NCBI GenBank assembly: GCA_902489595.1 | Contig: CABUAS010000001.1 | Coordinates: forward strand, 2,166-66,165 | From: an uncultured Oscillospiraceae bacterium | Lineage (GTDB): Bacteria > Bacillota > Clostridia > Oscillospirales > Acutalibacteraceae | Length of the DNA stretch: 64,000 nucleotides | Direction: 5' to 3' | Shown here: positions 36,235-54,674 of the stretch, in pieces | Position numbering within the stretch: the stretch's first letter is position 1 | Layout of the letters: each line of letters opens with the position of its first letter | The notes under the pieces: model-generated | The model's database searches: none | What the model was told of the DNA's origin: nothing | Seen by the model: only the letters and a program-made list of their open reading frames with translations | Program-made: the position numbers and the translations under genes

Positions 36235-37251
36235 TCAGTTCAGTTTTTTAACAGTCAATGACGCCTGATTTACTGTTCCTTCTGTGTTGTTTACAGTTGA
36301 AGTCAGCGAAACATCAATAACATCACCTGCGGCAAGTGTAACGATTACACTGTTTCCGAAAGTTTTATCGTTATTCGCAGTCAGCGTCAAAGTCTGTGCA
36401 GTTTGAGGAATAACACTGCCATTGTTCCTGACAGCAAGAGTTAGATTTCCTGCATTGCTTACTGATGCCACAACATTGTAGGTCAGTTCATAATCTCCTG
36501 CCGTTGTTATTGTGAGCGCATTGGCATTTGCCGCAGTGTTCACATTTAAAGTCGGCATAATTGACGGCATAGTTACCGTTGTAGGTGTTCCTGTTACAGT
36601 TTCAAAATCCTGTGCCGCAGTAGAATAGCGTCCGCTGTACGCTTCCAATCCTGAACCTTCTGCACCCGTAGCACCTGTTGCGCCTGTTGCGCCTGTTGCG
36701 CCTGTTGCACCCGTTGCGCCTGTTGCACCCGTTGCGCCTGTAACACCCGTTGCGCCTGTTGGTCCTGTCGGTCCTGTTGCACCGTTTGTACCCGCTGTGC
36801 CTGTTGCACCCGTTGCGCCAGTTGGTCCCGTAGGTCCTGTTGCACCGTTTGTACCTGCCGTGCCTGTAGCACCTGTAGCGCCCGTTGGTCCCGTAGGTCC
36901 TGTTGCACCGTTTGTACCTGCCGTGCCTGTTGCACCTGTCGGTCCTGTAGGACCCATCTGACCGTTCATACCGTCTGCACCCGTTGGTCCTGTCGGTCCT
37001 GTAGGACCCATCTGACCATTCATACCGTTAAGACCTGCAGGACCTGTCGGTCCCGTAGCACCTGTTGCACCTGTTGCGCCTGTAACTCCCGTCGAACTTC
37101 CCGTCGGTCCTGTAGGACCTGTTGCTCCCGTAGGACCTGTCGGGCCCTGAATACAACAAGGAGTACAACAATGCCTTTCAACATTACAGCTGCAGCCCTT
37201 TGAACATCCCCTGCTCAAAGCGTCGTTATCATAAGGTCTGTAAATTGTCAT
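36235..37251 (-). CDS. collagen-like (GxT repeat) BclA-type spore surface protein with C-terminal jelly-roll-like domain
   Basis: Cys-rich N-terminus ([18 protein letters not shown]), about 180 aa of GPT/GAT triplets, then a non-repetitive 140-aa C-terminal domain. Confidence 0.85.
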
Positions 37252-38430: not shown

Positions 38431-38726
38431 AAAATGAAAAACGCCACTAAATAACTTAGCGGTGTTTCTCAAAAGGGGTAAAAATTTATGTAAAAGCCAA
38501 AAGCTTTTAAGTAAGAAACGGTTTAATTTCTTACTACGCTCATCATTATAATTATTATTTAAAAAAAATCAAGACCTTTATTTGGATTTCTATTTTTTTG
38601 ACATATCGTCTAAAAAGTAAAGGCAATTTTTATGCAATTTTCACAAATGATTATTTACAGATTTTTAATGATGTACAAAAAAAGAATCAGCGGCGTGCAC
38701 ATAAATCACACCGCCGAGGCTCAAAA

Positions 38727-39170
38727 TTACTCCATCTGTTTTCCCAAAAATGCCGCTGCAACCTGCACGAGTTTAATGTCGGTTTCATCGGGCAAAGTAT
38801 TAGGCTCTGTTTCCATAAGAGCCACTGCACCCGAAACATCACCGCCGTAGATAATCGGATACACAACGTTTGCCTTGCGGTCAAACCCCTCAATCGCATT
38901 CATTGACGGAACATCGCGTGTAGCGATGTGAATCTGCCTGTTTTCCATCAAATCTTCAAGATTTTTTGTAATTCTGCGCTCAAGAATTTCACGCTTACTG
39001 ATACCTGATGCGGCAATAACATGATCGTTATCCATAATTGCAATCGGCAGTCCGCCGCTTTTATGAAGCACCTCGGCATACTGATTGGCAAAATTTGAAA
39101 GTTCACCGATAGGTGAATATTTTTTAAAAATAACTTCGCCCTCTGAATCCGTAAAAATTTCCAGCGGGTC
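38727..39170 (-). pseudogene. spoVT: spoVT 3' segment (codons ~32-end, GAF-like C-terminal domain), detached from its 5' end
   Basis: DPLEIFTDSEGEVIFKKYSPIGELSNFANQYAE...VQVAAAFLGKQME is collinear with SpoVT after the GDPLEIF motif. It is read as the tail of the recombinase ORF. Confidence 0.9.
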
Positions 39171-40937
39171 GCCGCCACATATAACATTGACACCGAAAGC
39201 CTTGTCCCTTTGGTTTTTAACCGTTTGGACTATTGTGGCTGATAAGTTACCTTCGATGTCCCAATTAAAATTTACGACTTTACCTCTGTAACCTGCTTCT
39301 TCGAGTTGTTCATCGGTAAGCGTACCTGCTTCAAGCAACATAGCAATATCCGCTTTTAACTCTATGTCTATGTGCGGCTCTTCGCCGTCAAAGACCACTA
39401 TTCTATCAACAATAAGCGGTAGATCGCCCTTGTCGAGTTTATCCTTGTCGAGAATATCACGGAAAATTTGCAAAGCCGTTTTTGCGATACGGTTGACCTC
39501 TATGGTTGTGTTTCTGCGTTCAACCGTCATTTCAAGTTGCTTTTCAAGACCGTCAATTTTTTGCAAAAGCTCGGTTTCCATTTCCTCATAGGTTTCCTCT
39601 ATGATTTCACGGTTTACACCTTCCGCTTTCATTAACTCACGAATTTTCTGCTTTTGAGTAGCCTTGTAACTCTCCCTTGCCTTTGCTAAATCCACCTCTA
39701 AATTTGCGATAGTGGAAGCAGAGGTTTTCATCATTTGTGGCTCACTCTTAATGGCTTTTTCCAATTCAGCAATCATTTTTTCGGAGTTCATCATCACACG
39801 CTCAATATACTTTTTGAGCATCGTATCGAGCAAATCAATACGGGTATGGTGTGATGTGCAACCTTTAAGACCTCTCTTGTGGTACGTTCCACAAGTGTAG
39901 GCGGGTGCTAAATCGGGACGGCTCATAGAGAACATAGGACTACCGCAATCACCACAAAAAAGGAAACCCGAATAGGTAGTATCGTATTTCTTGACACCCC
40001 GATAATTCGATTTTGTCCGTGCTTTTAGGTGCTGTTGAGCCTTCATAAACTCTTTGACATCGACTATGGCAGGGTGATGATTTTCAAACACCTTGTGTTC
40101 GTCCTCGTCCAATTTTTTATCCGCACCATTGATATTTTTACGGGTATATTTGTGCTGACGGAGAGTGCCGATATAAAAATCATTCTGCAAAATACCGCTG
40201 ATTGACGGTATTGCCCATATAGGACTTGCTTTGATTTTTACCTCAACCTTGCCCTTGCTCTTTGCGGCTTCGGCTTCTTTGCGTTCCTTTTCCACCATAC
40301 GAGGTGTCGGGATATTTTTCTCGGTAAGGTAGTTTGCAATTTTCTTATAACCCCACCCCTCGTTGTATAGACGGAAAATCTCACGGACAACCACCGCCGC
40401 CTTTTCGTCAACCTCAAAAATCATATTTTTGGTATCAACAAAGTAATATCCGTAAGGCACGGCACAAATCCAATTCCCGTCATTTTGACGGCTCTCAACG
40501 ACCCTTTTTACCTTTTTGGAAGCATCGGTAACGGGCATTTCGTTGAGCAAAAAGCGTACTTGGATATTATTCCAATCATCATAGGTCGGATAGTCGATAC
40601 CGTCACCGATGGAAATAATACGCACCCCTGCATCTCGCAAATCTTCGAGTTCTACAAGACCTCTACTGTTACGGCGGGAAAAACGGGAAAAGTCTTTAAT
40701 GATAAGAATATCGTAATGCCCGTTCATCAAAAGTGGACGCATACGCTGATAATCTTCTCTCTGCTCAAAGGTGTAACCGCTTTTATCACGATCCTCGTAA
40801 TAGTCCACCTCTGCATCGGGAAATGTCTGCTTAATGTAAGTTTTTATAATTCTTCTTTGGTTTTCGATAGATGTATTATCTCTGTCTTTTTCAGTATCAA
40901 CAGAGATACGCATATATGCGGCAATCTTTTTCGCCAT
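38727..40937 (-). CDS. large serine recombinase (TnpX/SpoIVCA class); ORF continues in frame into the spoVT 3' segment (589 + 147 aa)
   Basis: Resolvase domain (AAYMRISVDT...RFSRR), recombinase domain, Zn-ribbon (CGDCGSPM...CGTY...C) and coiled coil. No stop codon before the junction at 39170. Confidence 0.9.
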   Translation of the reverse strand: MAKKIAAYMRISVDTEKDRDNTSIENQRRIIKTYIKQTFPDAEVDYYEDRDKSGYTFEQREDYQRMRPLLMNGHYDILIIKDFSRFSRRNSRGLVELEDLRDAGVRIISIGDGIDYPTYDDWNNIQVRFLLNEMPVTDASKKVKRVVESRQNDGNWICAVPYGYYFVDTKNMIFEVDEKAAVVVREIFRLYNEGWGYKKIANYLTEKNIPTPRMVEKERKEAEAAKSKGKVEVKIKASPIWAIPSISGILQNDFYIGTLRQHKYTRKNINGADKKLDEDEHKVFENHHPAIVDVKEFMKAQQHLKARTKSNYRGVKKYDTTYSGFLFCGDCGSPMFSMSRPDLAPAYTCGTYHKRGLKGCTSHHTRIDLLDTMLKKYIERVMMNSEKMIAELEKAIKSEPQMMKTSASTIANLEVDLAKARESYKATQKQKIRELMKAEGVNREIIEETYEEMETELLQKIDGLEKQLEMTVERRNTTIEVNRIAKTALQIFRDILDKDKLDKGDLPLIVDRIVVFDGEEPHIDIELKADIAMLLEAGTLTDEQLEEAGYRGKVVNFNWDIEGNLSATIVQTVKNQRDKAFGVNVICGGDPLEIFTDSEGEVIFKKYSPIGELSNFANQYAEVLHKSGGLPIAIMDNDHVIAASGISKREILERRITKNLEDLMENRQIHIATRDVPSMNAIEGFDRKANVVYPIIYGGDVSGAVALMETEPNTLPDETDIKLVQVAAAFLGKQME

Positions 40938-40986
40938 ATATTCACCACCAATGTTGTATTTTTATATACTCCTATTTACGAACAAC

Positions 40987-41015
40987 ATTGTAACATACCT
41001 TTCTACAAATTGCAA
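40987..41015 (-). promoter_or_regulatory. candidate sigma-A promoter of the recombinase gene (internal to the element)
   Basis: Minus strand TTGCAA, 17 nt, TACAAT, about 45 nt upstream of the recombinase ATG. Confidence 0.55.
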
Positions 41016-41095
41016 CACTTTTCGAGGAATTAGTTGATTTTGGAAGTCTTTTAATGTAATTATGGCAGAATAAACCTCTGCCATAGCAGAGATAA

Positions 41096-41344
41096 TTAAC
41101 TATCTCCGATTAGTCCTTGCTGAACGTTCTTGGCTGCAAGAACCTCTTTGTTGTGGAGCAACAACTCCTTTGTGAGTTCCACAATATCGCCTTTGCCGGA
41201 AAGGAATACGCACACCTTATACCCTTTGGCTTTCCAATTTCTATAATCGGGTTTTAAGGACTCTCGCAACGCTTTGTCCTCTCTTTCTTCCCGTGATAAC
41301 CAATAATATGCTATTTTGTTCTTGTCGCAGACTTCCAAAATCAT
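41096..41344 (-). CDS. hypothetical protein (82 aa)
   Basis: ORF with RBS GGAGGTG. No family recognised. Confidence 0.5.
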   Translation of the reverse strand: MILEVCDKNKIAYYWLSREEREDKALRESLKPDYRNWKAKGYKVCVFLSGKGDIVELTKELLLHNKEVLAAKNVQQGLIGDS

Positions 41345-41595
41345 TCGCTGACACCTCCGTTCATTCCATATTTTTCCTCGATTTTGTTGCGTCTATTCAG
41401 ATTGCTTTTTTACCCTCCGAAAAAGAAAATGGGTGTGCCTGACCTCAAGCGGCGGCTTCCAAACACCGCTTTGGTCTATATACTCTCTGTCTAAAGTAGT
41501 CCATAGAATTATTCTTTTTTCGGGTAGTAAGTTATTATCTTTAGTATTGTTTCCTGCTAAAAAGCCGCAGTCTTTAATGCGGAAAAACCGCACTC

Positions 41596-41949
41596 TTACT
41601 GTGTTTGGAACTTGTGGACGTAGAGCCGAGTCGGTCTGCCTTTGCCTTGCCGTTGTCGGCTGATGAGTCCGTACATTTCCAATTCTTTCAGCATTTTGGT
41701 GGCTTTATCGTGTCCGCAGGAAAGTGTTTCGCATATATCCTTTAGGGTGCAATACACGAACACATCGCCGTAGCGGTCAGTAAATCTATCCTTGTTTTTG
41801 GTGGAAAGGCTCATACGGTCAAGCAGTATTCCGTAGAGCAGGGCGGCATTTGCGGATAGCCCCGTATATGACGGGTGCGTTAGGATTGCTTTCGGAACTC
41901 TCACAAAAGCAAACGCTTCAGCTTCCCACCACTTGAATTTTTCGCCCAA
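41596..41949 (-). CDS. RepA_N-like winged-helix protein (replication initiator A N-terminal domain type)
   Basis: FVRVPKAILTHPSYTGLSANAALLYGILLDRMSLS...TLKDICETLSCGHDKATKMLKELE resembles the Firmicute RepA_N domain (from memory). Confidence 0.65.
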   Translation of the reverse strand: MGEKFKWWEAEAFAFVRVPKAILTHPSYTGLSANAALLYGILLDRMSLSTKNKDRFTDRYGDVFVYCTLKDICETLSCGHDKATKMLKELEMYGLISRQRQGKGRPTRLYVHKFQTQ

Positions 41950-42029
41950 GCGTTCTCACTCCTTTCGTGCGATTTTTTGTATTAAAAGGGGGCGGTTTTT
42001 GCCGTTTTCGTCCTCTGTAAGCGGCTTTT

Positions 42030-42278
42030 CTAAGGTGGGTGGTATGTTTCCCTTAACTTCCCGATATTCTGTTTTTTGCAACGATTTGGTGCTTTTTTAC
42101 GGGCATAATGCACCGCCCTTTTGCTTTCATATCGGCGGCACTCTATGATTTTCGCCCGAAAACTCTGTTTGCAATCACGGGTACAACTGCGGCATATTTC
42201 GTTGTAGGTGCGGCGGTGCGTTATCGGATGAATGAAGAACGCCCACTCTTGTTTTGCTTTCTTTGATAATCTCGGCAT
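42030..42278 (-). CDS. cysteine-rich VLP-type small protein
   Basis: Start moved to MPRLSKKAKQEW. The CRSCTRDCKQS...ECRRY motif is common in Firmicute mobile elements (from memory). Confidence 0.6.
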   Translation of the reverse strand: MPRLSKKAKQEWAFFIHPITHRRTYNEICRSCTRDCKQSFRAKIIECRRYESKRAVHYARKKAPNRCKKQNIGKLRETYHPP

Positions 42279-42419
42279 CGTAAAACTCCTTTCACTTATT
42301 TGGACAAAGGGGTGCATTTTGGACACCCATTTTGAATTTCTTTTATTTACCCCTTCACTTGTTCCTACGGACATTATCAGGGTGTCATAGAACTGTCATA
42401 ATCGTTTTGTTTTCCCTCA

Positions 42420-42800
42420 ATGAGTAGCCACCGAGAAGGGCAAAAATATAACCGTTTTCAAAAAATCTTTCTAATAAGTAGGCACCGAAAGCGGCAAAAA
42501 TTCAAAAGGATTTGAAAAAATATCTCTCTATTTGTTTGAAACGGGAGAGGAAAATATAAGGGTGTTTTTTGAAAAATCTCTCACATATTTGGAATTGCTA
42601 CCGCCGAATGATGCCCTGTTTGCATTAAATTTTTCTGCGGCTCTCACTTACCTGCCGCACGGTTTTGAAGAAAAAACGAAACAGTTTCTAATATGTAATT
42701 GGCGAATTTATTTAGCGTTTGGCAAAAATTTTTTGATCTTCCTACTTTTAATTGCTGAATTTTTTTAGCGTTTAGACACTCCGTTTAATAATTTATTGGG
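42420..42800. repeat. iteron-like direct repeats in an A/T-rich noncoding stretch (candidate origin/operator region)
   Basis: GTAGCCACCGAGAAGGGCAAAAAT (42423) matches GTAGGCACCGAAAGCGGCAAAAAT (42477). TTGAAAAAATATCTCTC matches TTGAAAAATCTCTCAC. GAATTTATTTAGCGTTTGG (42704-42722) matches GAATTTTTTTAGCGTTTAG (42756-42774). Confidence 0.4.
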
Positions 42801-42850
42801 AAATTTTTTGCTGAAAATAAAAAAGATTTCCGAAAAAATTTCTCGGAAGT

Positions 42851-43020
42851 CGAATGGAGAATGAGATGCACTATACCAGCAAGCATCGCCTTTTGTCACC
42901 CAAAGGTAGACCTGCCCGCCGACAAAGTATTGTCTTAGCGAGCAGACCGTTTTTACTCCTATCGGCTAAAAATGGTACTCGTTAGGGAAATTCCCTAAAA
43001 CCCTTTGCCGCCGCAGAGCA
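42851..43020 (-). ncRNA. candidate structured ncRNA, copy A (homologous to 53496-53722, opposite strand)
   Basis: Lies between two minus-strand terminators (43022-43062 and 42812-42850). It shares three blocks with copy B: TTAGGGAATTTCCCTAACGAG, GGTCTGCTCGCTAAGA and TTTGGGTGACAAAAGGCGATGCTTGCT. Confidence 0.35.
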
Positions 43021-43072
43021 TAAAAAAGACACCTATCAAAATTGATAAGTGTCTGTGTGCGGCGGTGCCGCC

Positions 43073-43783
43073 TTATTCAGTTTTGGTTTTGAGCCGACAC
43101 ACTCCGTCAGCTTCGTCCCGCCGCTTTAATTCGGCGGCAAGGGTATCCATCATCTTACGCTCAATGTGTTCCACGCTACCACGATTGAGGTCGTGCTGAT
43201 CGGCATACTTGCGTACCGATACCCCGTTTATGTAACGCTCGGTAAAATATTCTGCAAAAACTTTCATTACCGATTTTAAGCAGCCGTTTATAAAGCGGTA
43301 GTCCTCCATCATAACGGCATACTCATCTTTGCTAATGCCAATGTAACGGTTGTGTGCTTTGCAGAGTAAGTGCCTATCCCTATCTTCCGTATAGTGTTTG
43401 CAAAGATCCTTCGCATAATCATAATAGGTGGTGGTTGTTCGGAAACGGCGGCTGTAATAACTCTCTTTGTGTTCTTTTGGCTTGTTCGTGCGGCGAACAC
43501 CCTCGAAGCCATCTTCCTCTATATCGAGCCATAGCCAATTCGGTGCGTTCATTTGCGTTTGACGGGTAAAGCACCGCACCGTCTTTCCGTTATGCTTGAC
43601 CTTTGCATTAAAATCTTTCAAGGGCATTGTAACATACTGATTCTTGTCCTTGTAATCAACTGTATAAAAAATAACGGTGTCCTCTTGGCTTTCATAATCC
43701 TTTGCCGTTGTTACAACAAAGATGTGTTTGCCGTCATAACGCTTGTAATAACCGGCAAAGACACGCCTTTCTTTTTCAGCCAT
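43073..43783 (-). CDS. DNA-binding protein with sigma-70 region-4-like C-terminal HTH (N-terminus DUF1653-like)
   Basis: C-terminus ERYINGVSVRKYADQHDLNRGSVEHIERKMMDTLAAEL resembles a sigma region 4 HTH. The N-terminal assignment is from memory only. Confidence 0.55.
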   Translation of the reverse strand: MAEKERRVFAGYYKRYDGKHIFVVTTAKDYESQEDTVIFYTVDYKDKNQYVTMPLKDFNAKVKHNGKTVRCFTRQTQMNAPNWLWLDIEEDGFEGVRRTNKPKEHKESYYSRRFRTTTTYYDYAKDLCKHYTEDRDRHLLCKAHNRYIGISKDEYAVMMEDYRFINGCLKSVMKVFAEYFTERYINGVSVRKYADQHDLNRGSVEHIERKMMDTLAAELKRRDEADGVCRLKTKTE

Positions 43784-44034
43784 AGAACCGCCACCTTTCC
43801 GTTGAATTTATTTTATTATACACCTTTTTAAGCCGAAAAGAAAGGTCATAATTTTGAACAATTATAGCACAGTATAAAACAAATTGAGAATTAACGATTA
43901 GAATTAATGCCATCGTTAATTCTATCATCTTCACAATTAATTCTGAACTTTTTTTGAAACTTGCTTCCCAATATTGAAAATTCATTGATTTCGGGAAACA
44001 AATGTGGTATAATAACTTTGCGAGGTGATTTTCT

Positions 44035-45228
44035 ATGAAACTAATCGAAAGAAAACAATACTTAGATAAAATGATAGGCGTTATCGGAACTCCCGATATT
44101 AAAGTTTTAACAGGCGTGAGACGTTCGGGTAAATCAAAGTTACTCGAAGCCTTCAAAGCCTATGTGAAAAAGAATATTGTTGACGCTAATATTATTCATA
44201 TCAACTTTAACCTGTCTAAGTATGACAACCTTAAAGAATACAAAGCACTTAATGAATATATCGAAAACAACTATGTAGAAGGTAAGGAAAATTTCGTTTT
44301 AATTGACGAGATTCAAATGTGCGATAATTTTGAGCTGTGTATAAACAATCTCCACGCAACCGAGATGTACGATATTTATATCACGGGTTCTAACGCTTTT
44401 CTGCTCAGCTCGGATTTGGCAACATTGTTTACCGGCAGAACATTCGAAATCAAGGTGTATCCATTCTCCTTTGCCGAATATGTGCATTACTTCGGTCTAA
44501 CAGATAATTATACTGCTTTTGATAACTATATGCTTGAAGGCGGTATGTCCGGTTCTTATCTGTATAAAGAGCAAGAGGATAAATACGATTATATCGAAAC
44601 CGTCTTTGATACGTTGATCTTAAGAGATATACGACAAAAGTATAACATCAAAAATCCTGCTCTGATGGATCGTATTTCTCAATTCTTGATGGATAATGTG
44701 TCCAATTTGACCTCGGCAAGAAGCATTACGGACACGCTCACCTCGAACAAGGATAAAATTAATCATAAGACAGTTGGCAATTATCTGAGTTACCTTTGCA
44801 ACGCATTTGCCTTCTATAAGTTCCGCAGATACGATATTAAAGGCAAAAAATATCTTGCTTCCAACGATAAGTACTATTTAAGTGACCATACCTTCCGCTA
44901 TGCCAAGCTCGGTACAAAAAACTTAGATAACGGCAGAGTGATTGAAAATATCGTTGCAATGGAATTGCTTAGACGTGGCTATGAGGTTTATGTCGGTGTC
45001 TTATATAAAAAAGAGATTGATTTCGTAGCACTTAAGAGAAACGAGAAAATTTATATTCAGGTTTCGGACAATATTACCCATCCCGATACCTTTAGGCGAG
45101 AAGTTGATCCCCTGCTCAAAATCAAGGATGCCTATCCCAAGATGGTTATTGCACGAACAAGAAACCCCGAATATCAATACGAGGGCGTTAGAGTTGTTGA
45201 TGTGGCAGACTGGCTGCTAAACAAATAA
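44035..45228 (+). CDS. AAA+ ATPase (AAA_14 + DUF4143 type, COG1373-like) with PD-(D/E)xK-like C-terminus
   Basis: Walker A GVRRSGKS, Walker B VLIDEIQ. C-terminal EIDFVALKRNEKIYIQVS nuclease-like motif. Confidence 0.8.
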   Translation: MKLIERKQYLDKMIGVIGTPDIKVLTGVRRSGKSKLLEAFKAYVKKNIVDANIIHINFNLSKYDNLKEYKALNEYIENNYVEGKENFVLIDEIQMCDNFELCINNLHATEMYDIYITGSNAFLLSSDLATLFTGRTFEIKVYPFSFAEYVHYFGLTDNYTAFDNYMLEGGMSGSYLYKEQEDKYDYIETVFDTLILRDIRQKYNIKNPALMDRISQFLMDNVSNLTSARSITDTLTSNKDKINHKTVGNYLSYLCNAFAFYKFRRYDIKGKKYLASNDKYYLSDHTFRYAKLGTKNLDNGRVIENIVAMELLRRGYEVYVGVLYKKEIDFVALKRNEKIYIQVSDNITHPDTFRREVDPLLKIKDAYPKMVIARTRNPEYQYEGVRVVDVADWLLNK

Positions 45229-45370
45229 CAACTTCCCAAAAACGAAAAAAATATAAATTTGGATAACGTAATTATTATCCCGCATATATCTTTTTATCAA
45301 GCCGATATTCGTTGGCGCTATTGATATGAAAGTTGTAGATGCTTGTGGGGTAACAGCAAAAGGAGAAAAA

Positions 45371-45871
45371 ATGAAGTTAGCTGAAATATTAAATCTCATA
45401 GCAATTATTATAATTCCAATTATCGCCGTTATAGTTGGGCAGTGGTTACAAACTCGCTCTGAAAAACGAAAAGACAAAATGCACATATTTAAAACATTAA
45501 TGACTTCCCGTGTTTATGGGTGGACGCAAGAAAGTGTATATTGCTTAAATATAATCGACATAGTGTTTGCAGATGATAAGAAAGTACGCAATGCGTGGAA
45601 AGACTTGTACGATAAGTATTGTGTTCAAAATCCCGATGAATCGCAACTTAAAAAAATCGAGACTGCACAATACAAATTATTAGAGACTATGGCTGTTTCT
45701 TTAGGATATAAGGATAAGGTTACGTGGGAAACCATTCAAAATCCCTATATTCCCAAAGGAATGTTACGGCAGATCGAAGCTCAAAACCAATCTCAACAAG
45801 CGTATAACAATCTATTGCTAAATATGCAACAGATGATGCCGCAGAGTAAAAATCCGGAGGAAAAGAAATGA
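45371..45871 (+). CDS. small N-terminally membrane-anchored protein, translationally coupled to mod
   Basis: Start at [25 protein letters not shown] (RBS AAAGGAG). Its stop overlaps the mod ATG (ATGA). Confidence 0.6.
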
Positions 45872-47592
45872 GTACCAATATTTCAAAACAAAAGCGTGAG
45901 GATCTACTTACGAAAATAAAAGAAATTCGGACTTTTATTTCTGCTGCACCGCAGGACGAGAACACGGGCAATCTGCTCTCCTACCTTTCGGAGCTTGAAA
46001 AAGATGTGTGCGGTAAAAAATACGGTCTTGTGTTCGAGGAACACCGTGAGGAGATTGACGAGGTACTTGCCACCCACACGCCCGTCCTGACTGAGCAAAG
46101 CGACCTTTATATTGCCAACGGCGGCGAAATGAACTTTCTTATCGAGGGGGACAACCTCGCTTCGCTCAAATTGCTTGAAAAGACACACAAGGGTAAAATT
46201 GACCTCATTTACATAGATCCGCCATATAACACACAAAACGCTGATTTTATGTACGATGATACTTTTGTTGCGGCGGATGACTTATATAGACACAGTAAAT
46301 GGCTGTCTTTTATGAAAAAAAGATTACTGTTTTGTCGAAAATTATTAGCTGACAGAGGTTTTATTTTTATAAGCATTGATGACAACGAAGCACCGTACTT
46401 AAAGGCTCTCTGTGATGAAATTTTTGGTGAGGATAATTACGAAAAAACTGATTATATTCAAGTGCGTTATCCCGATAAAACATTGAAATCCGATATGCGT
46501 TACCACAAGGAAATTGAGCAAGTTTTAGTGTATCGAAAGTCATTTGCGGCAAAACCATATCTTAAACCACAAGAATATGATTACGATAAATTTATATATT
46601 CTATCAATGAATTATCCGCAGGCAAAGAGATCGAATTGGGCGGAAAAAAGGTGGTTGTCTTTGAGCAAGACGAATACGAAATCATACAACACGATACGGG
46701 CTTCAAAGATGGTCTAAAAGAAATATGGGCAACGGGTACAATTCTCAATGGTAATTCATCGGGTAGATTTTTCCGTGATTATCTTGATGGCAGAAAAGAT
46801 ATTGATGGATTAGGCATTCTTTATAAAGTTTATGGTATAGGCGATGACCAATACCCCTACCGATATTTTACCGGTCCTAAAAAGGCAAATGCAACAAAAG
46901 GAAAGTATTATCAAGGAGTTCCTTTCGAAAAGATGGCAGAGGGTGCGACAAAGGTAACTCCTATTCCTAATTTTTATGATATGGCAGGAGATTTTGGCAA
47001 CATTCGGCACGAGGGCGGTGTTCCTTTTAATAGCGGCAAAAAACCTGTTAAACTGATAAATATGTACCTTGATTATTTTGCAGAGAAAGATATTACGGTT
47101 CTTGACTTTTTCGCAGGTTCAGGCAGTACGGGACACGCTGTGTTACAACGCAATACCCTTGACGACGGAAATCGAAAATTCATTCTTTGCACAAATAACG
47201 AAAGCGGTATTTGTCGGGACATTACATATACCCGCATTAAAAACGTTTTGCAGAAAAATAGCGGCAGTCTAAAATATTACAAGGTGGACTATATCCCCGT
47301 GAGCGAGCGTATGTACTACGAATATGCGGACGAGCTGCTTTTGCATATCCGTGAACTCGTTGAGCTTGAAAACGGTGTAAATTTTACGGGCAATGCTGAA
47401 ATCGGTATTGTGCTGACGGAAGAAGAACTTGACGAATTTATAGCCAATGCAGACTCTTTTGCAAAATGCCGCAAACTGTATATGGGACACGACCTCTTAC
47501 CGAGCGAAGAACAAGAGCGTGTACTGAAGAAATACGGCATTGAAATCAGTATCATTCCCGACTACTACTATCGGGATTTGCAGGAGGGTTGA
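45868..47592 (+). CDS. mod: type III restriction-modification methyltransferase (Mod)
   Basis: DPPYN motif ([10 protein letters not shown]) and [13 protein letters not shown] motif in beta-class order, with a central variable region. Confidence 0.85.
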
Positions 47593-49781
47593 TTATGGTA
47601 TTAAAAGAATTTCAGTTAAATGCGGTAAAATCGTTGTTTGAAGCAATGGCAACCCCTGCTCGTGATATTATTCTCAAAAGCCCTACGGGTAGCGGTAAAA
47701 CCATTATTTTGACCTATTTTATGCACCAATACATACAGTCTTTCCCGAAAACCGTCTTTGTATGGCTTACGCCCGGCAAGGCAAACCTTGAAGAACAGAG
47801 CAAGGCGAAAATGGATAAGTATATCCACGCTTCGCAAACAAAACTGCTCTCCGATGTGATGACGGCGGGTTTTGAGGAAAATGACAGTTGCTTTATAAAT
47901 TGGGAGAAGCTGACGAAGAAAGGCAATAATGCCCTGAAAGACAGTGAACGCACCAACTTTTTAGAGCATATTCAACACGCCCTCAATGACGGTATTCGCT
48001 TTGTGATTATCGTGGACGAGAGCCACCAAAACAACACCATAAAAGCCGATGAAATTATACAGTATTTTCACACGGACAAGATTATCCGTTGCTCTGCTAC
48101 TCCGAAAGGCATAGCGAAAGCGGAAATCATTGATATTCCCGAAGAAGAGGTTATTGCGGCGGGACTTATCAAAAAAATGCTTGTTATTAACCAAGACTTT
48201 CCGCAGACCATTGAAACAGAAGATCAAACGGCTTTTCTGCTTGAAAAGGCACTCAAAAAGCAAAGGGAACTCCGTGCAGCATTTTTACAAAACGATACCG
48301 ATATTAACCCTTTAATCGTAATTCAGATCCCGAACAAATCTGAATCCTTGCAGGACGGTGTGGAACGTTACCTTGAAACGCAGGGGTTGACCTACGAGAA
48401 CGGACAACTTGCGGTATGGCTCTCCGACCAACACGAAAATTTGGAGGGTATTGACGAGCCTAACGCCACCACCTCTGCGGTCATTATAAAACAAGCGGTT
48501 GCTACGGGTTGGGATTGTCCGAGAGCACATATCCTTGTGAAACTTCGTGATAATATGGACGAAACCTTTGAGATACAAACGATAGGTCGTATTCGCCGTA
48601 TGCCCGAAGCAAAGCACTACCAAAGTGATCTGCTCGACAGTTGCTATCTTTACACCCTCGATGAAAAATTCACCGCAGGCGTAAAAATGGCTCTCGACAA
48701 GGGTGCATTAAACGCTTGTACTCTTTTTCTTAAAAACGAATATAAAGACATAACGCTCACAAGCGAACAGCGAACAATGGTTACAAGTACCCGTAATCCA
48801 CAAAAGGCATTACAAGCCATTGTTGCCTACGCTCAAAAGGAACTTGGCATTGGTACGGACAAGACGGAAAATCGGACACGTTTGCAGACCGCAGGCTATG
48901 AGTTGAGCGAAAACATTGTAAAGCATACCCTTTCGGGTGAAACTGCTACCCTTGATTTTGCGGCGGCAGATATGAACGCTATTGCGGTTACTGAAAAACT
49001 GAATACCCATACACACGGACGAGATTACCATCAAAAAGTCGGTAAAATCGGCTTGGAAATCGGTATGGAATATTCGTATATGAACACCATTATTCGCAAA
49101 CTGTTTGATAAAAACTTTAAGTACAGCCGTAAAATCCTTGCTTTAGAGCCGAGAGAGGTTTACGCCTTCGTAATAAACAACGCTGACAGACTTCGCCATT
49201 TAGTGCGTGAAGCTATGGCTTATGAATTGGCTCAAATGCAGTTTGAAATTCAGCAAAAATCTTATTACGAGTTCCGCATTCCGCAGTCTTGTTTATTCAC
49301 CTACAACGGCGAAGCGAAAACGCAGCTCGTAATGAAAAAGAACGTATATCAGAATTATCTCTCATCTGCCGCACCACGCTCTATGCCGGAGGTTAAATTT
49401 GAGAAATTCTGCGAGCGTTCCGACAGCATTGAATGGTGGTATAAAAACGGGGACAAGGGTAATGAGTATTTTTCTATCGTCTATACGGATAATTCCAATA
49501 GACAAAAGCTGTTCTACCCCGACTATATTATTTCCGTAAACGGCGAGTTGTGGATTATCGAAACAAAGGGCGGCTTTGACCGTAGCGGCAATAGCCAAGA
49601 TATAGACCTTTATACACCGAAGAAATTTGGTGTGTTAAAAGCCTATCTTGACGAACACGGATTAAAAGGCGGTATCGTCCGCAACGATGCAACAACCGAT
49701 GAACTGTGTATCTGTATGGATCACTATTCCGATGACATCGGTAGTGATGATTGGCAAGTGCTTGAAAGCGTATTGCCTTAA
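47589..49781 (+). CDS. res: type III restriction enzyme Res subunit (SF2 helicase + PD-(D/E)xK nuclease)
   Basis: [13 protein letters not shown] and QTIGRIRR helicase motifs. C-terminal [18 protein letters not shown] nuclease motif. Start overlaps the mod stop. Confidence 0.85.
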
Positions 49782-49822
49782 ATAGACGAAAACGGCAGGT
49801 GTCTATACTGCACCTGCCGTTA

Positions 49823-50080
49823 CTACTCTATTTCTTGGTCGAGGTTATCGAACTCTGCTGAGTCGAAAAAGTCTTTAAGGGACATATTAACCCCGTCACA
49901 AATGATTTTTATGGTTGCGATTTTAGGATTTTTGCTTTTGCCGTAAAGGATATTCTTTATCGAGGACGGCGGCAAGCCTGCGGCGGTTGCCAACGCATTT
50001 ATGGTTAAATCCTTTTCATCGCATATCTGCAATATTCTATTTTTAACCGCTTTGCATAGCGGTGAGCGTTGATCGGTCAT
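49823..50080 (-). CDS. XRE-family HTH transcriptional regulator
   Basis: Start at MTDQRSPL. HTH ICDEKDLTINALATAAGLPPSSIKNILYG. Confidence 0.8.
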   Translation of the reverse strand: MTDQRSPLCKAVKNRILQICDEKDLTINALATAAGLPPSSIKNILYGKSKNPKIATIKIICDGVNMSLKDFFDSAEFDNLDQEIE

Positions 50081-50194
50081 ACTGACTACCCCTATATACA
50101 CATTTTGCTATATATAGTGTAGTCAATTTTTTTGACGATTATAGGCTACGCATACTACTTTTAGGCTATACATAGCCTATTGGAGATGAACACA

Positions 50195-50626
50195 ATGGAG
50201 AAAACAGCGACTTTTATCGGACACGGCGAGTGTTGGGGTGTGGATAAAGAGAAAGTCCGTGCCGCCGCCGAAGAATTGATACAAAAAGGTGTCGAAACCT
50301 TCCTTTCGGGCGGTATGGGCGGCTTTGATTGGCTCGGTGCAAGGGTTGTATATGAGTTAAAGGAAAAGTACCCTCATATCAAAAATATCCTTGTAATTCC
50401 GTACCTTACCTTTAACGTGCGGAACAAAGACCTCTTTGACGAAATACTCTACCCCGATGGCTTTGAGAAATATCATTTTAAGGCGGCGATCCCGAAGCGT
50501 AACCGCTTTCTCGTAGATAACTCAAAATATGCAATCTGCTATGTTACACACGGCTGGGGCGGAGCTGCACAAACCTATGAATACGCAAAAAAGCACGGCT
50601 TGAACATTGTGGATATACGATGTTGA
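50195..50626 (+). CDS. SLOG-fold protein of the YpsA/DUF1273 type
   Basis: TFIGHG...FLSGGMGGFDWLGARVV...KRNRFLVDNS pattern resembles DUF1273 (from memory). Start chosen at MEKTATF with RBS GGAG. Confidence 0.6.
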   Translation: MEKTATFIGHGECWGVDKEKVRAAAEELIQKGVETFLSGGMGGFDWLGARVVYELKEKYPHIKNILVIPYLTFNVRNKDLFDEILYPDGFEKYHFKAAIPKRNRFLVDNSKYAICYVTHGWGGAAQTYEYAKKHGLNIVDIRC

Positions 50627-50809
50627 AAACAAGGTGATGTGTTTTGATTTAAGCACAGCCGAAATTTCTACCTATCGTCAAGCCAAAGACGAATAATTTT
50701 TAGCACTACCAAAGCGGCAGGGGGAGAAATCTCCCTGCCGTGATTTTCCTTATTTTGTGTTAAATTTTCAAAATCGAAACAAAATATAGTGTTTATTATG
50801 AAAAAAGAC

Positions 50810-50838
50810 TTGACTTTTTCGGTAAGATGGGTTATACT
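50810..50838 (+). promoter_or_regulatory. sigma-A promoter of the immR/immA-like operon
   Basis: TTGACT, 17 nt, TATACT, 50 nt upstream of the XRE gene. Confidence 0.6.
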
Positions 50839-50886
50839 TTTGGTAAGTCGGAGTAGAAGTTACTCCGCATATAAGGAGGAAATACT

Positions 50887-51198
50887 ATGAGTAAAGCATT
50901 TGGACAGAGGTTATTAAACCTATTACAAAAACAAGGTATAACACAAAAGGAGCTTGCTGATAGAATTAATACTACTGAAGCAACACTCTCTCGTTATGTT
51001 TCCGGCGACAGAGAGCCTAAAGCGGATATGCTCGCAAATATCGCTACTGCCCTTCACACTACATCGGATTATCTGCTCGGAATTGAGCCTGATGATTTTG
51101 ATTTCCCAAAGGTTGAGCGTCTATTAGCAAGAAACGCCGCAACAATGTCGGAAAAACAAAAACGAGCACTTATTTCTGCTTTGTTCGGGGAGGACTAA
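50887..51198 (+). CDS. XRE-family repressor (ImmR-like)
   Basis: HTH QKELADRINTTEATLSRYVSGDREP. Directly followed by the ImmA-type protease gene. Confidence 0.85.
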   Translation: MSKAFGQRLLNLLQKQGITQKELADRINTTEATLSRYVSGDREPKADMLANIATALHTTSDYLLGIEPDDFDFPKVERLLARNAATMSEKQKRALISALFGED

Positions 51199-51200
51199 TA

Positions 51201-51749
51201 TTGGCATTTAGATTATCAGACAAACGATGTGAAGAAATCAAAGAGATTGTAGTCAACACTTTCGAGGAACTTAATATCCGATGTATTCCTATAAGTGCCT
51301 TTGAAATGGCTACAAAACTCGGTGCGGTGGTTGTCCCTTATTCCTCAAAAACCGAAGAAACACGGCAACTTATGATGGAAAGAAGTGAGGACGGATTTAC
51401 CATCAAGAAAGATGGCGTGTGGTACATTTTTTATAATGATGCAAAGGGCTACGGACGTGTCAACAACACCCTCACCCACGAGTGTGGGCATATAGTGTTG
51501 GATCACACGGAAGAAAGCGAATTGGCAGAAGCCGAAGCGAAGTTTTTTGCAAAGTATGCTCTCGCACCGCCCGTCCTCATTCACAAATTAGAGTTAAAGG
51601 ATGCCTACGAGGTTTACGAGCATTTTGACATCAGCCTTGAAGCAGCAGGCTACGCCTTCTCTTACTATCGTAAATGGTTGACTTACGGCAATAAGGATTA
51701 TACCAATTACGAAATACGATTACTCCAGCTTTTTAAAGAAGCTGTGTAA
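51201..51749 (+). CDS. ImmA/IrrE-family metalloprotease (anti-repressor type)
   Basis: HExxH motif THECGHIVLDH. TTG start with RBS GGGGAGGA. Confidence 0.85.
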   Translation: MAFRLSDKRCEEIKEIVVNTFEELNIRCIPISAFEMATKLGAVVVPYSSKTEETRQLMMERSEDGFTIKKDGVWYIFYNDAKGYGRVNNTLTHECGHIVLDHTEESELAEAEAKFFAKYALAPPVLIHKLELKDAYEVYEHFDISLEAAGYAFSYYRKWLTYGNKDYTNYEIRLLQLFKEAV

Positions 51750-51781
51750 TAGTAAATTAAGAGAAAGGACGGTGATGTTAT

Positions 51782-51982
51782 ATGATTGTAAAGGTCGTAC
51801 AAATAGAAAAAGCACTCAGTAAATTGCGGCAACAATTTACAAAGTGCGTTCTCTTTGGATGCGAGCATCCGATATTCTGTTACAAGTATTATGCCACATC
51901 TGAAGAAAAATTGCAAGAACTATTGATGTTTTTACGAAAAAAATTTGCGATTTTCTGCAAAGAACAGATGAGGAGGGCATAA
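51782..51982 (+). CDS. hypothetical small protein (66 aa)
   Basis: ORF in operon context only. Confidence 0.35.
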   Translation: MIVKVVQIEKALSKLRQQFTKCVLFGCEHPIFCYKYYATSEEKLQELLMFLRKKFAIFCKEQMRRA

Positions 51983-51987
51983 TATAT

Positions 51988-52653
51988 ATGTCAAGAAAAA
52001 ATGGCACTCGAAGTGGGTGCAAAGATGTTTTTCACGCATTTTTAGTAAAAAATGCGAACTACGATAGTCCACTTGAAATCCCGTGCTTAAAAACAGAAAT
52101 GCGAAAGCCCAACAAGCTCATTGCGTTTTCAAAGGCGGTACACAGTACCGAATATGATGCTTGGGTGCATTTTTACGAGGACGATACCGCTTTTGAAAGA
52201 TTATGGAATAGACCTAACACCTATCTCCCTATCCTAAAGAAATTCAAAGGGGTTATATCTCCCGATTTTAGTGTCTATCGAGATATGCCGTTGGTAATGC
52301 AACAATGGAATATTTATCGTAGCCGTGCAATCGGTCATTGGTTGCAAGAAAACGGAATACCCGTCATCCCCAATATACGCTTTGGCGATGATCGTACATT
52401 TGAATTATCCTGTGCGGGTATAAAAAAGCACGGGGTAATCGCAGTAGGCTCTCACGGCTGCATAAGGCTACTGAGCGAACGCAAGTATTTTATAAACGGC
52501 TTAAAATATGTGGTTGACACATTAGAGCCAAAAACCATTGTGGTATATGGTGCTACACCGGACGAGGTTTTCGCACAGTATAAAGAAATGGGAATTGAAA
52601 TACTGCAATTCGACAGCGACTTTATGCAAAGTCGAAAGGCGGTGAGCGCTTAA
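51988..52653 (+). CDS. DUF4417-like protein
   Basis: The pattern VISPDFSVYRDMPLVMQQWNIYRSRAIGHWLQENGIPVIPN matches my recollection of DUF4417. RBS GAGGAGG. Confidence 0.55.
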   Translation: MSRKNGTRSGCKDVFHAFLVKNANYDSPLEIPCLKTEMRKPNKLIAFSKAVHSTEYDAWVHFYEDDTAFERLWNRPNTYLPILKKFKGVISPDFSVYRDMPLVMQQWNIYRSRAIGHWLQENGIPVIPNIRFGDDRTFELSCAGIKKHGVIAVGSHGCIRLLSERKYFINGLKYVVDTLEPKTIVVYGATPDEVFAQYKEMGIEILQFDSDFMQSRKAVSA

Positions 52654-53093
52654 TGGGTGCAGGCTTTCACGGTGGTTTTGGCGGCACTCACGGTGCAGGC
52701 GAAAACCACAAAGATTACATTGAAAATACTCTGCCCAAGAGTTCACCTATTAAAATTCCGTACTCTGCCACAGTAAAAGAAGAACAGAAAAACGGATACG
52801 ACCAAGTTAAATATACTTGGAAAAAGGGTGATTATTCTTATACAAGCCGTTGGCACACCCGCACACCTAATGCACCAAAAGAGCAAGGAAATTCGTGGGT
52901 TGTTGAGCGTAAAAAATCAGGTGTTGGTTACGGCAAAAATGCACGCCCAAAGCAAGAAGAAGTTTTGGTAGGAAAAAACAAGTGGATATCAAAGCAAGAT
53001 TGGAAAAATGCAATAATGGCACGTAAAAAAGGCACATTAACACAACAACAAAAGGAGTGGTTGGATAATGGACACTGGAAAGACAATAGATAA
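52653..53093 (+). CDS. basic, Gly-rich-N-terminus protein (toxin-like, unassigned)
   Basis: GAGFHGGFGGTHGAG then a K/R/W-rich domain (YTSRWHTRTPNAP). TAATG overlap with the upstream gene. Confidence 0.45.
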   Translation: MGAGFHGGFGGTHGAGENHKDYIENTLPKSSPIKIPYSATVKEEQKNGYDQVKYTWKKGDYSYTSRWHTRTPNAPKEQGNSWVVERKKSGVGYGKNARPKQEEVLVGKNKWISKQDWKNAIMARKKGTLTQQQKEWLDNGHWKDNR

Positions 53094-53451
53094 TTTCAAA
53101 TTCTATGAGGGATTTGAAGGTGAACCCGAAATTGTAATCAAAGCCGAAAACTCGGATATGCAAATCTTACATATATGGGATGGATACTTTGATGATATAT
53201 TGAGAGAACCCAAGCTTGACGGAAACGGGTGGCAAGGGTTTACAAGAGATTATCATCAATGCGAGGGTGCGTTCGGGGATGATTCCGAAGCAATCATAAC
53301 AGATATAAACGAATACCTCTCTGACCTAAAATCATACCAAAATCGTCATTTTGATTATGACGATACAAAAGAAGTGTATGATTTACTGTGTTCTTGGTTA
53401 GATAATGCAATAAAAAATGGGTTTGAAAGAATATCTATAAAAGTAGTCTAA
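53068..53451 (+). CDS. acidic small protein (immunity/antitoxin-like, unassigned)
   Basis: D/E-rich 127-aa ORF with RBS AAGGAG, overlapping the preceding gene by 26 nt. Confidence 0.45.
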   Translation: MDTGKTIDNFKFYEGFEGEPEIVIKAENSDMQILHIWDGYFDDILREPKLDGNGWQGFTRDYHQCEGAFGDDSEAIITDINEYLSDLKSYQNRHFDYDDTKEVYDLLCSWLDNAIKNGFERISIKVV

Positions 53452-53495
53452 TCTATTTCACGGCAGAGACTTGTTCTCTGCCGTGTTTTCATTTT

Positions 53496-53722
53496 GGCGG
53501 GTATTAGGGTGTTCCCTAACGAGTGGTATTTGGTAGTGTGACTACCCAAATACACTGCTCGCTAAGACGGGACGGCTTACGAGCAAAGCACCGTTTGTGG
53601 AAAACCTATCCACAAATGGTCTGCTCGCTAAGATAGTGCAGATTATTACCGCACGTGGCTTTTGGGAACAAAAGACGATGCTTGCTATGCTCATACCGCC
53701 AATGGCGGCAAAGCAAAAAAGA
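53496..53722 (+). ncRNA. candidate structured ncRNA, copy B
   Basis: Flanked by terminator hairpins (53460-53495 and 53723-53768). Internal hairpins TTAGGG-TGTT-CCCTAA, GGTAG-TGTGA-CTACC and CCGTTTGTGG...CCACAAATGG. The CTCGCTAAGA motif occurs twice. Confidence 0.35.
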
Positions 53723-53771
53723 AGGCACAACCAACGGATTTTCGTCCGAAGGCTGTGCCTTTTTCATTGTT

Positions 53772-53945
53772 CTATACGTATTTTACACGCACATTTTTGA
53801 GTTTTGACCGCATAATTTTTAGCAAAACTTCGTCAACGCCGTCCGTGTATTTACCCGCCGATATAAGCGCGTTTTTCTTTGCGATAAGGCTCTCAATTAT
53901 CAAATTTCTTTCTTCGGGGGTGATGTAAATGTAAAACTTTTTCAA
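53772..53945 (-). CDS. small ORF (57 aa, TTG start overlapping the tnpV stop)
   Basis: (M)KKFYIYITPEERNLIIESLIAKKNALISAGKYTDGVDEVLLKIM... found by hand translation. It is below the ORF-track cutoff and is followed by a hairpin terminator. Confidence 0.4.
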   Translation of the reverse strand: MKKFYIYITPEERNLIIESLIAKKNALISAGKYTDGVDEVLLKIMRSKLKNVRVKYV

Positions 53946-54310
53946 GCGTAAACCACCTCTGCGTTGACAATTTCGGTGGCTCGGTTACGGATATTGTTCA
54001 TCTTCTGCACCCACTCCATCGGTGCGGCGGCTTTCAATTTTTCCGTAACACCCTCGTTTTCAGCAAGGGATTTTACAATGTCCTCAAACATTCTCTCGGC
54101 TCGTTTGTCGAGATTGGAAAGGTGGCTTGTCAATTTGCAACTTGTCAGCAGATTGATGTAAAACACCTTCCTGTGCTGCTTAATGTAGCGTAGATGCCGC
54201 TGTCCCCATACCCCTATTTCCGTTTCTTCTTCGGTGGGCAAAACGAGGTTGGGTAGGTAGTAATCGCCCTGCTTTGTGTAAGTGCCGCCCATTTTTTCGT
54301 ACTGTGTCAT
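53942..54310 (-). CDS. tnpV: TnpV-like protein (Tn4451/Tn4453 family accessory protein)
   Basis: MTQYEKMGGTYTKQGDYYLPNLVLPTEEETEIGVWGQRHLRYIK...WVQKMNNIRNRATEIV matches the TnpV pattern. RBS GGAGG. Confidence 0.8.
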   Translation of the reverse strand: MTQYEKMGGTYTKQGDYYLPNLVLPTEEETEIGVWGQRHLRYIKQHRKVFYINLLTSCKLTSHLSNLDKRAERMFEDIVKSLAENEGVTEKLKAAAPMEWVQKMNNIRNRATEIVNAEVVYA

Positions 54311-54331
54311 TTTTTCTGACCTCCGTATAAT

Positions 54332-54508
54332 TTATTTTCCGATGCAACGTTCAGCGAACTGAAGCATTGCATAACAGAACTTTTCATACGGTGTCAATGA
54401 TGTATGTAACGGGTCACCCTCTTTAATTCTGAATGAACGCCTGATTTCCTTTGGAATAACAATTCTTCCGAGATCATCAATACGTCTTACAATTCCTGTT
54501 GCCTTCAT
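54332..54508 (-). pseudogene. spoVT: spoVT 5' segment (AbrB-type N-terminus, 33 codons) running into 24 element-encoded codons
   Basis: MKATGIVRRIDDLGRIVIPKEIRRSFRIKEGDP then LHTSLTPYEKFCYAMLQFAERCIGK-stop. RBS GGGAGA. Confidence 0.9.
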
Positions 54509-54674
54509 TGTAATTTCTCCCTTAAAATGTATTTTGCTCTGTAATATTTTGCACATTATTTACTGTAAAATACAAATTAAGTTGAGGAATTTTTAACCAA
54601 AATCAGCAAAAAACTTTATTTTAAATTACTCTTATGATAGAATATAAAAAATAAATGCACAAAGGATAATTTTA

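Follow-up and report, generated by a model that had tools for sequence, protein, structure and literature searches.

Why does a tnpV gene follow directly on the promoter and a truncated 5' part of the sporulation gene spoVT? We asked this for a stretch of 64,000 nucleotides (the window) from an uncultured Oscillospiraceae bacterium (assembly GCA_902489595.1, contig CABUAS010000001.1, positions 2,166 to 66,165), in which the arrangement lies at 53772-54674; both parts of spoVT, the element and the two genes downstream of spoVT are given on the minus strand. A preliminary description proposed, as a hypothesis, promoter capture, TnpV and/or a 57-amino acid (aa) protein encoded behind it acting as a recombination directionality factor timed by spoVT induction. 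Our analysis points to another answer. The region is the attL (left) junction of an integrative element of 15.2 kb employing a large serine recombinase, and the wiring is probably what is left when integration splits a recombinase-tnpV operon, forespore read-through into tnpV being a by-product and not an evolved excision timer.

The stub open reading frame (ORF) behind the spoVT promoter (54332-54556, stop TAA at 54334-54332) has its real start at MKATG at 54508, in agreement with the 58-aa stubs called in other hosts, and it is composed of two parts of different origin. The first (54414-54508, MKATG...KEGD, through the GA crossover) derives from the host: it is preceded by the ribosome binding site (RBS) AAGGGAG, matches the AbrB/MazE domain and is 99.97% identical, as far as window position 54410, to contig L050, where the site is empty. 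The second (54332-54413) derives from the element: the third base of the Asp codon and the codons for Pro and Leu, all from a shared GDPL, are followed by HTSLTPYEKFCYAMLQFAERCIGK and the stop, and the whole stub reads as an AbrB-type N-terminus, MKATGIVRRIDDLGRIVIPKEIRRSFRIKEGDPL from 54508, followed by HTSLTPYEKFCYAMLQFAERCIGK. These final 24 codons (54407-54335) are neither spoVT nor junk but the native C-terminus of the recombinase, which integration has displaced, and they are translated, since a variant subfamily carries Ala-to-Ser and synonymous changes in them.

At the other end of the element, the recombinase body (aa 1-590, 39169-40937) has the Resolvase, Recombinase and Zn_ribbon_recom domains (PF00239, PF07508 and PF13408) and YMRISVD near its N-terminus, which identify it as a large serine recombinase. 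It ends at the GA crossover and is continued in frame by the 3' part of spoVT (38727-39168; SpoVT_C/GAF-like, PF15714, E 4.5e-39; positions 27-180 of TIGR02851 spore_V_T), which is 99.9% identical to L050. The fusion ORF (38727-40937) thus encodes 736 aa, of which the last 125 are the SpoVT C-terminal domain, with ...VICGGDPL followed by EIFTDSEGE at the junction. When the stub through GDPL is joined to the remainder, a 178-aa SpoVT results, while the recombinase through GDPL joined to the stub tail gives a recombinase of 616 aa. The attP reconstructed in this way measures 52 bp (CGGTGTCAATGTTATATGTGGCGGC-GA-CCCGTTACATACATCATTGACACCG), has perfect 11-bp outer inverted repeats with GA at the centre and sits within the last 25 codons of the recombinase gene, its left half at 39195-39171 and its right half at 54413-54389, inside the element-derived tail of the stub. 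One recombinase core was found fused to many different C-termini, reading GGD or GGE; as these secondary fusions switch directly after GA, the crossover is fixed there.

Both reconstructed products are on record. An exact-sequence look-up returned two native recombinases as predicted, P0262 (616 aa) and P0274 (619 aa), whose C-terminal end is exactly the tail of the stub. P0274 is listed in 36 collection blocks, and we read the 24 with the longest contigs. Contigs L039-L044 (10-12.5 kb) consist of element DNA only, in the order recombinase (619 aa), 20 nt, tnpV and next ORF, with the predicted attP exact; in the free form, therefore, tnpV comes next after the recombinase. Among these joined-form contigs no closed circle was seen: they lack terminal repeats and break in variable cargo. 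The reconstituted SpoVT of the window host is likewise on record exactly (P0289), and in empty-site contigs L050-L052 it stands between the same two neighbours, a PHP gene and a glycosyltransferase gene; these contigs are 99.9-100% identical to the window flanks. Uniting the two halves thus gives the very ORF present in empty-site strains. Positions 1-3099 of L050 correspond to 57508-54410 of the window and positions 3091-5165 to 39173-37099, so the whole element occupies 39169-54413 (15,245 bp counting one GA). Static assemblies therefore show that attP and attB forms exist. A scan of JGI metagenome contigs for attP gave 0 matches in a collection with only 3 left ends, thus without power, and a third homology search, made with the recombinase C-terminus and tail, returned only 23 candidates, among which tail fusions were seen and the native recombinase was absent.

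One base of the left flank deserves mention. Position 54416, just 5' of the GA crossover, is the sole mismatch in 3.1 kb between the window and L050 (position 3093): the window, L051 and L052 have T and L050 has C, the base of attP. The difference may be a synonymous polymorphism or the footprint of an earlier integration/excision cycle.

From these junctions the structure of the insertion follows. In the free form a single transcription unit runs from the recombinase promoter through the recombinase (616 aa), 20-21 nt, tnpV and a small ORF to a terminator. Recombination at the central GA with the matching spoVT sequence (E-G-D-P-L codons) splits this unit, so that tnpV, the 57-aa ORF (orf57) and the last 24 codons of the recombinase land behind the host spoVT promoter and its first 32 codons, while the recombinase body retains its own promoter and gains an in-frame SpoVT C-terminal domain. 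In vegetative cells tnpV and orf57, severed from the recombinase promoter, would probably be silent. Promoter capture as an evolved design therefore gives way to a plainer account: with attP between the recombinase body and tnpV, integration splits one operon automatically, as the joined-form contigs prove. With attP inside the recombinase gene, reciprocal in-frame fusions and a split recombinase-tnpV unit, the locus is a clean natural example of integration rewiring transcription.

The layout behind the stub was as the preliminary description had it. The stub stop is followed by a 21-nt spacer with RBS GGAGG (54311-54331; RBS at 54324-54320), kept in all copies, and by tnpV (53942-54310, 122 aa). 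The latter matches Pfam TnpV (PF14198) with E 5.8e-47 and 158.7 bits (cut-off 27), residues 10-120 covering profile positions 1-111 of 111, and it shares the invariant residues of 32 homologues, as a member of the family should. The 57-aa ORF (53772-53945) starts with a TTG that overlaps the tnpV stop (TTGA), an overlap from which translational coupling to tnpV is probable. Its homologues, with 67-98% identity, occur in L001, L011, L013, L015, L016, L021 and L025, the one in L021 having an ATG start and the overlap ATGA at the same place; searches of NCBIfam, PHROGs and Pfam gave no family match for it and nothing informative for the other small backbone ORFs. An intrinsic terminator (53717-53766) closes the unit, with a hairpin at about 53761-53722 (-32.5 kcal/mol, z -6.2), then UUCUUUUUU with its U run; a simple terminator scan overlooked this hairpin owing to its loop rule, and folding recovered it. 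On the minus strand from the spoVT start to tnpV, neither a sigma-70-like promoter nor a terminator-like site was found, as had been claimed for the terminator. The order stub, 21 nt, tnpV was present in every spoVT-integrated copy examined (L001, L002, L009, L011 and L012), so the arrangement is not due to chance.

We then considered what drives the stub. Scanning upstream of spoVT for a sigma-F/G-type motif, as the preliminary description had advised, gave a match at 54545-54573, with -35 GTATT (54573-54569), a 17-nt spacer and -10 CAAAATA (54551-54545). The motif G[TCA]AT[ATG]-N17/18-nAnnATA was found at -90 to -45 in 15 of 18 distinct host spoVT upstream regions, whereas in shuffled sequences this number averaged 0.2 and never exceeded 3. 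We take this promoter to be of the forespore (sigma-F/G) type, considering the B. subtilis consensus GHATR-N17/18-CATnnTA. The spoVT gene of C. difficile depends on sigma-F/G from a promoter that resembles both consensus sequences, and a spoVT mutant forms zero heat-resistant spores (PMC3789822); in B. cereus, loss of spoVT blocks sporulation (PMC5061766). Since the forespore-type promoter is conserved and no terminator intervenes, we infer that sigma-F/G-driven transcription of spoVT should run on into tnpV-orf57 in the forespore, a reasonable conclusion from the structure of the locus. Of the earlier claim that whatever drives spoVT would transcribe tnpV, the promoter type and the terminator-free wiring thus stood on the DNA itself, and the read-through is deduced from them. 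A second spoVT copy was absent from the 64-kb window, which cannot speak for the genome.

The recombinase has a promoter of its own. The vegetative-looking TTGCAA-17-TACAAT named earlier was recovered at 40987-41015, extended by a TG; it is complete and lies 1.8 kb from the joint, which falls in the 3' end of the gene. Upstream of this promoter, in all copies, directly adjoins a conserved ORF of 82-84 aa without a known family (41096-41344), followed by a weak terminator-like hairpin (41093-41074). This ORF is an alternative candidate for a directionality factor, and such candidates matter here: as the element excises, either some directionality factor or an intrinsic bidirectionality must exist.

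Could TnpV and/or the 57-aa protein be that factor, induced from the forespore spoVT promoter so that a constitutive recombinase excises attL x attR and rebuilds spoVT when it is needed? The wiring is real, conserved and terminator-free, the promoter is of forespore type, the recombinase has a vegetative-type promoter of its own, excised forms are common in metagenomes, and timed repair of a gene essential for mature clostridial spores (PMC3789822) would be advantageous. In addition, both spoVT halves are intact in all the full-length fusion proteins listed. Several results nevertheless make this model decidedly unlikely. TnpV homologues 64-70% identical follow Mob_Pre relaxases in elements that use a tyrosine integrase, and specific docking of such a protein on unrelated recombinases is improbable. 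TnpV also lies beside tet(O) with no recombinase gene adjoining, and on a C. coli plasmid tnpV overlaps the end of a large serine recombinase gene; its distribution is thus not tied to a cognate recombinase. The free form would co-transcribe tnpV with the recombinase, precisely where a directionality factor, which in known cases blocks integration (GirX, PMC5595907), would be harmful to it. The elements behind the joined-form contigs have a 213-aa ORF in place of the 57-aa ORF, which is therefore not needed for excision. In Tn4451, according to Lyras 2004 as cited in PMC3158075, TnpX alone suffices and TnpV is dispensable. Moreover, excision in the forespore would strip the element from the germline unless it re-integrated, and the same element also enters genes unrelated to sporulation. 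We consider an excision-factor role of TnpV very unlikely, and the proposals made earlier for TnpV and for the 57-aa protein are both disfavoured, the former by the tyrosine-integrase homologues, the free-form co-transcription and the TnpX precedent, the latter by joined forms that arise without it.

The structure predicted for TnpV bears on the same question. The AF2 model (pLDDT 89.6) consists of a beta-hairpin and five helices, and by this model the fold would resemble neither Xis nor any of the solved structures searched, a further point against a directionality role. Fold searches of PDB and BFVD yielded nothing with E below 0.4, and at the sequence level PDB gave nothing significant, the best hit being an engineered repeat protein (E 0.006); TnpV also matches phrog_24764. 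An older suggestion, that TnpV is an excisionase like lambda Xis, was rejected, as the modelled fold is not a winged helix.

What TnpV does instead may be glimpsed from another element family (L036-L038, about 5890-6372), in which a TnpV of 65% identity is the first gene, ~108 nt inside the left end, with the relaxase further in. This family lies at three unrelated intergenic sites, after different host genes and in either orientation. Since the same layout recurs there, adjacency of tnpV to the element end is ancestral and has nothing to do with spoVT. In our view TnpV most probably belongs to the backbone of integrative mobilizable elements and works independently of the recombinase; its action would fall in the time when the element is free, in maintenance, transfer or regulation for example, and integration would switch it off. 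For the role of TnpV, an uncharacterised protein very common in gut Firmicutes, the spoVT element offers a concrete system. The boundary of the L036-L038 element lies near AATGATGAGGTGCC.

If TnpV has no part in recombination, the recombinase itself could be intrinsically bidirectional, like TnpX, and a steady low-rate exchange would keep a mixed population in which some of the cells have an intact spoVT and sporulation is phase-variable. Traits shared with Tn4451 speak for this possibility, namely the GA crossover, relaxed targets with many secondary sites and tnpV beside the recombinase (PMC3158075), and the joined form turns up about as often as any one of the integrated forms (P0274 in 36 blocks, P0106 in 41). 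Contigs also break exactly at the core. P0278, the truncated recombinase product, has entries in 164 blocks; the five of its contigs that we inspected (L045-L049) stop at the att core, at GACCCG itself or two bases further on (GACCCGCT or GACCCGTT), which implies that the 3' end of the recombinase gene has two or more continuations within one sample. This branching could reflect mixed attR and attP or, against the model, the same element in several hosts of one sample. The recombinase is moreover only 27% identical to a TnpX-like enzyme, and most characterised large serine recombinases are strictly directional. We regard intrinsic bidirectionality as unlikely.

The reciprocal fusions suggest still another source of direction. 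Integration swaps the native 24-aa tail of the recombinase for a 146-aa SpoVT C-terminal domain, and, as in the integration-dependent switches of some mycobacteriophages, the 736-aa enzyme of the integrated state might behave differently from the 616-aa enzyme of the free state. In agreement with such a reasoning, the in-frame fusions are kept in >118 protein clusters, the tail is conserved at the protein level and attP lies inside the gene. On the contrary, recombinases at secondary sites gain arbitrary short tails, so no specific fused domain would be required, and the frame match may simply follow from GGNGACCCG, common to attP and attB. We hold a C-terminal control of direction to be a highly improbable account.

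The comparison with known intervening elements that large serine recombinases excise from sporulation genes (skin in sigK, SPbeta in spsM, gin in gerE, phi3T in kamA and the yabG element) raises the question whether the spoVT element is one of them. As in skin, SPbeta and gin, a sporulation ORF is split precisely, the recombinase gene, at the element edge, borders the 3' fragment of the split gene, a sporulation-type promoter precedes small genes, and both empty-site and excised forms exist. The described elements, however, are all in mother-cell genes, so that excision is confined to the terminal cell and the germline keeps the element (PMC6957869), whereas spoVT (TIGR02851 equivalog, forespore-type promoter) is a forespore gene and not a mother-cell gene. 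In contrast to those elements, the spoVT element also moves readily from species to species, is carried by a minority of strains and inserts elsewhere as well. The parallel with SPbeta drawn in the preliminary description therefore survives in the separate promoter of the recombinase and in the small genes behind a sporulation-type promoter, and fails in the cell type, forespore for spoVT and mother cell for SPbeta. A forespore version can still be imagined: sigma-F/G transcription into tnpV-orf57 would trigger excision, spoVT would be rebuilt early enough for the spore to mature, and the non-dividing spore would keep the circle, with its RepA_N-like gene, and re-integrate it after germination, re-integration being required because the forespore is the germline. 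We judge this scenario very unlikely. If true, forespore excision and re-integration would amount to a reversible developmental switch in the inherited cell line, unlike the known mother-cell cases.

The reading we prefer, an operon split by integration, has its own difficulties. For excision, canonical large serine recombinases depend on a directionality factor, and this element plainly excises, while TnpV is among the few small proteins conserved across the backbone. Loss of spoVT harms sporulation in C. difficile (PMC3789822) and B. cereus (PMC5061766), and excision in a way compatible with the host would thus be strongly favoured. The unclosed joined-form contigs could derive from tandem copies or from a plasmid-like state. 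Both the read-through in the forespore and the silence in vegetative cells are deduced from the arrangement of the DNA. Finally, a block of sequence between the crossover and tnpV is under a constraint that the split-operon reading leaves unaccounted for and that could be regulatory.

This ~95-nt block (54413-54311), from the crossover to the tnpV start, is almost invariant, synonymous sites included: elements that share only 50-79% identity in tnpV and the recombinase gene share 98-100% in this block, and its conservation reaches well past a 25-bp att half-site. Long-range pairing is predicted in it that partly masks the tnpV RBS. Judged from such sequence features, the block suggests translational coupling or a regulatory site. 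It holds a hairpin (GCAATGCTTCAG-TTCG-CTGAACGTTGC, 54338-54379; -20.2 kcal/mol over 71 nt, z -3.3), the pairs of which are disrupted in variant copies L014, L017 and L018. We rejected this hairpin as a terminator, given that it has no U tract and lies within the translated region, and the earlier statement that no terminator separates the stub from tnpV is upheld.

How common is the element? Fusions of the recombinase to SpoVT_C form >118 protein clusters of 81-95% identity. Identical or 99%-identical recombinase cores are joined to divergent SpoVT_C domains (P0001, P0106, P0119 and P0279-P0285); therefore, the element passes from species to species and enters the same site again and again. 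With a probe for its invariant left end we detected it in 14 species-representative metagenome-assembled genomes (MAGs) of Acutalibacteraceae, Ruminococcaceae, Oscillospiraceae and others. Of the 14 insertions, 13 interrupt spoVT or an AbrB-like gene (a clean MKATG stub in 11, a frameshifted one in 1 and a doubtful AbrB-like gene in 1), and 1 lies elsewhere. In 11 of the 12 MAGs with enough downstream sequence, tnpV is the first gene at about +99, and 10 of these 11 are in spoVT, one (L016) being elsewhere. In the host of L009, intact SpoVT was found on at least 1000 contigs and the fusion on 32 contigs (41 blocks), so the insertion is a minority polymorphism there.

The choice of spoVT can be explained considering that its AbrB-like stretch is highly conserved DNA that resembles attP. 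At secondary sites the tail is fused to MsrB, VTC, RlmH and other N-termini that share ...(G/A)DPL. Since the element also enters AbrB-family genes other than spoVT, targeting appears to track the conserved DNA of the AbrB-like domain and not spoVT function. Examples of such insertions are P0275 and L022, one fusion continuing GDPLEIYTEGNSVILRKHESSCVFCGS.

A widespread and actively spreading family that splits spoVT is an awkward case, as mother-cell elements lose nothing on excision. Two outcomes are possible: either carriers lose sporulation, or the element excises and returns in the germline, and both bear on the transmission of gut anaerobes. Our literature search found no paper describing an element in spoVT; a mobile, defence-carrying family that targets this gene, with reciprocal in-frame fusions and abundant free forms, thus appears to be undescribed in the literature searched.

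Among the characterised elements that come closest to it are those of the Tn4451/Tn4453 family of integrative mobilizable elements. As in these, tnpV (PF14198) directly follows a large serine recombinase gene in the circular form (L039-L044), the crossover is of 2 bp (GA here), the target resembles the joint and secondary sites exist. GA is the crossover of Tn4451 too. On the other hand, the 3' end of the recombinase gene contains attP, which in those elements lies upstream of the gene, the joint forms no recombinase promoter, and reciprocal protein fusions arise. The cargo consists of defence systems and not catP, and one site, in spoVT, is strongly preferred. Tn4451/Tn4453 have the Mob/Pre relaxase TnpZ, whereas the element ORFs of the window, L001, L009 and L039 gave no match to a relaxase family. 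Identity to a TnpX-like recombinase that precedes tnpV on a C. coli plasmid, a reference that is not authentic TnpX, was 27% over 490 aa. Beyond this type, Tn916 transfer genes and the joint promoter of Tn4451 tnpX make expression dependent on circularisation, and in mycobacteriophages of the BPs/Brujita type attP lies inside a gene and forms an integration-dependent switch. These systems resemble ours in that integration or excision rewires the pairing of promoter and gene and that attP in a coding sequence alters a C-terminus. Unlike our element, which splits recombinase and tnpV and captures a developmental promoter, Tn916 and BPs/Brujita involve tyrosine recombinases or other genes. Similarity of gene order extends to related elements of C. 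difficile, to Tn6106, where tnpV is the first ORF and the recombinase the last, and to the similar layout of Tn6104 (PMC3158075).

The backbone of the element is constant across copies and its cargo variable. Small ORFs, a RepA_N-like protein, the recombinase and TnpV are constant, in the order tnpV-orf57 ... 126 aa, 236 aa, 114 aa, RepA_N (117 aa), 66 aa, 82 aa, recombinase; L009 and L039-L044 are related complete copies. In the window the cargo comprises a type III restriction-modification system, PDC-S01, a helix-turn-helix (HTH) protein with an M78 peptidase, YpsA and DUF4417, while sister elements at the same site exchange it for GmrSD/HNH, an EcoRI methylase, an SLFN-AlbA ATPase or EndoU. 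The elements thereby ferry variable defence cargo between species.

Within the window the defence-like genes lie at 44035-49781 and 50887-51749 and include a PDC-S01 candidate (AAA_14/DUF4143), DUF6680, the type III methyltransferase, the type III restriction helicase and an HTH and M78 (ImmA/IrrE-like) pair. The short RepA_N-domain protein (117 aa, 41596-41949) belongs to the conserved backbone beside the recombinase; with it the excised form might replicate or persist like a plasmid, which would account for the abundance of joined-form contigs. In L009, L019, L020 and L039-L044 the 57-aa ORF is replaced by the 213-aa ORF, which has a lipoprotein-like N-terminus (MKKFSVFIISVCLTLCIVGC...) and overlaps the tnpV stop. 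Just downstream of spoVT, a family-2 glycosyltransferase with TPR repeats (37306-38472) adjoins a collagen-like protein with GPT/GAT triplet repeats (36235-37251), which we take to be a BclA-like exosporium protein; the presence of these two genes near spoVT suggests that the host is a spore former.

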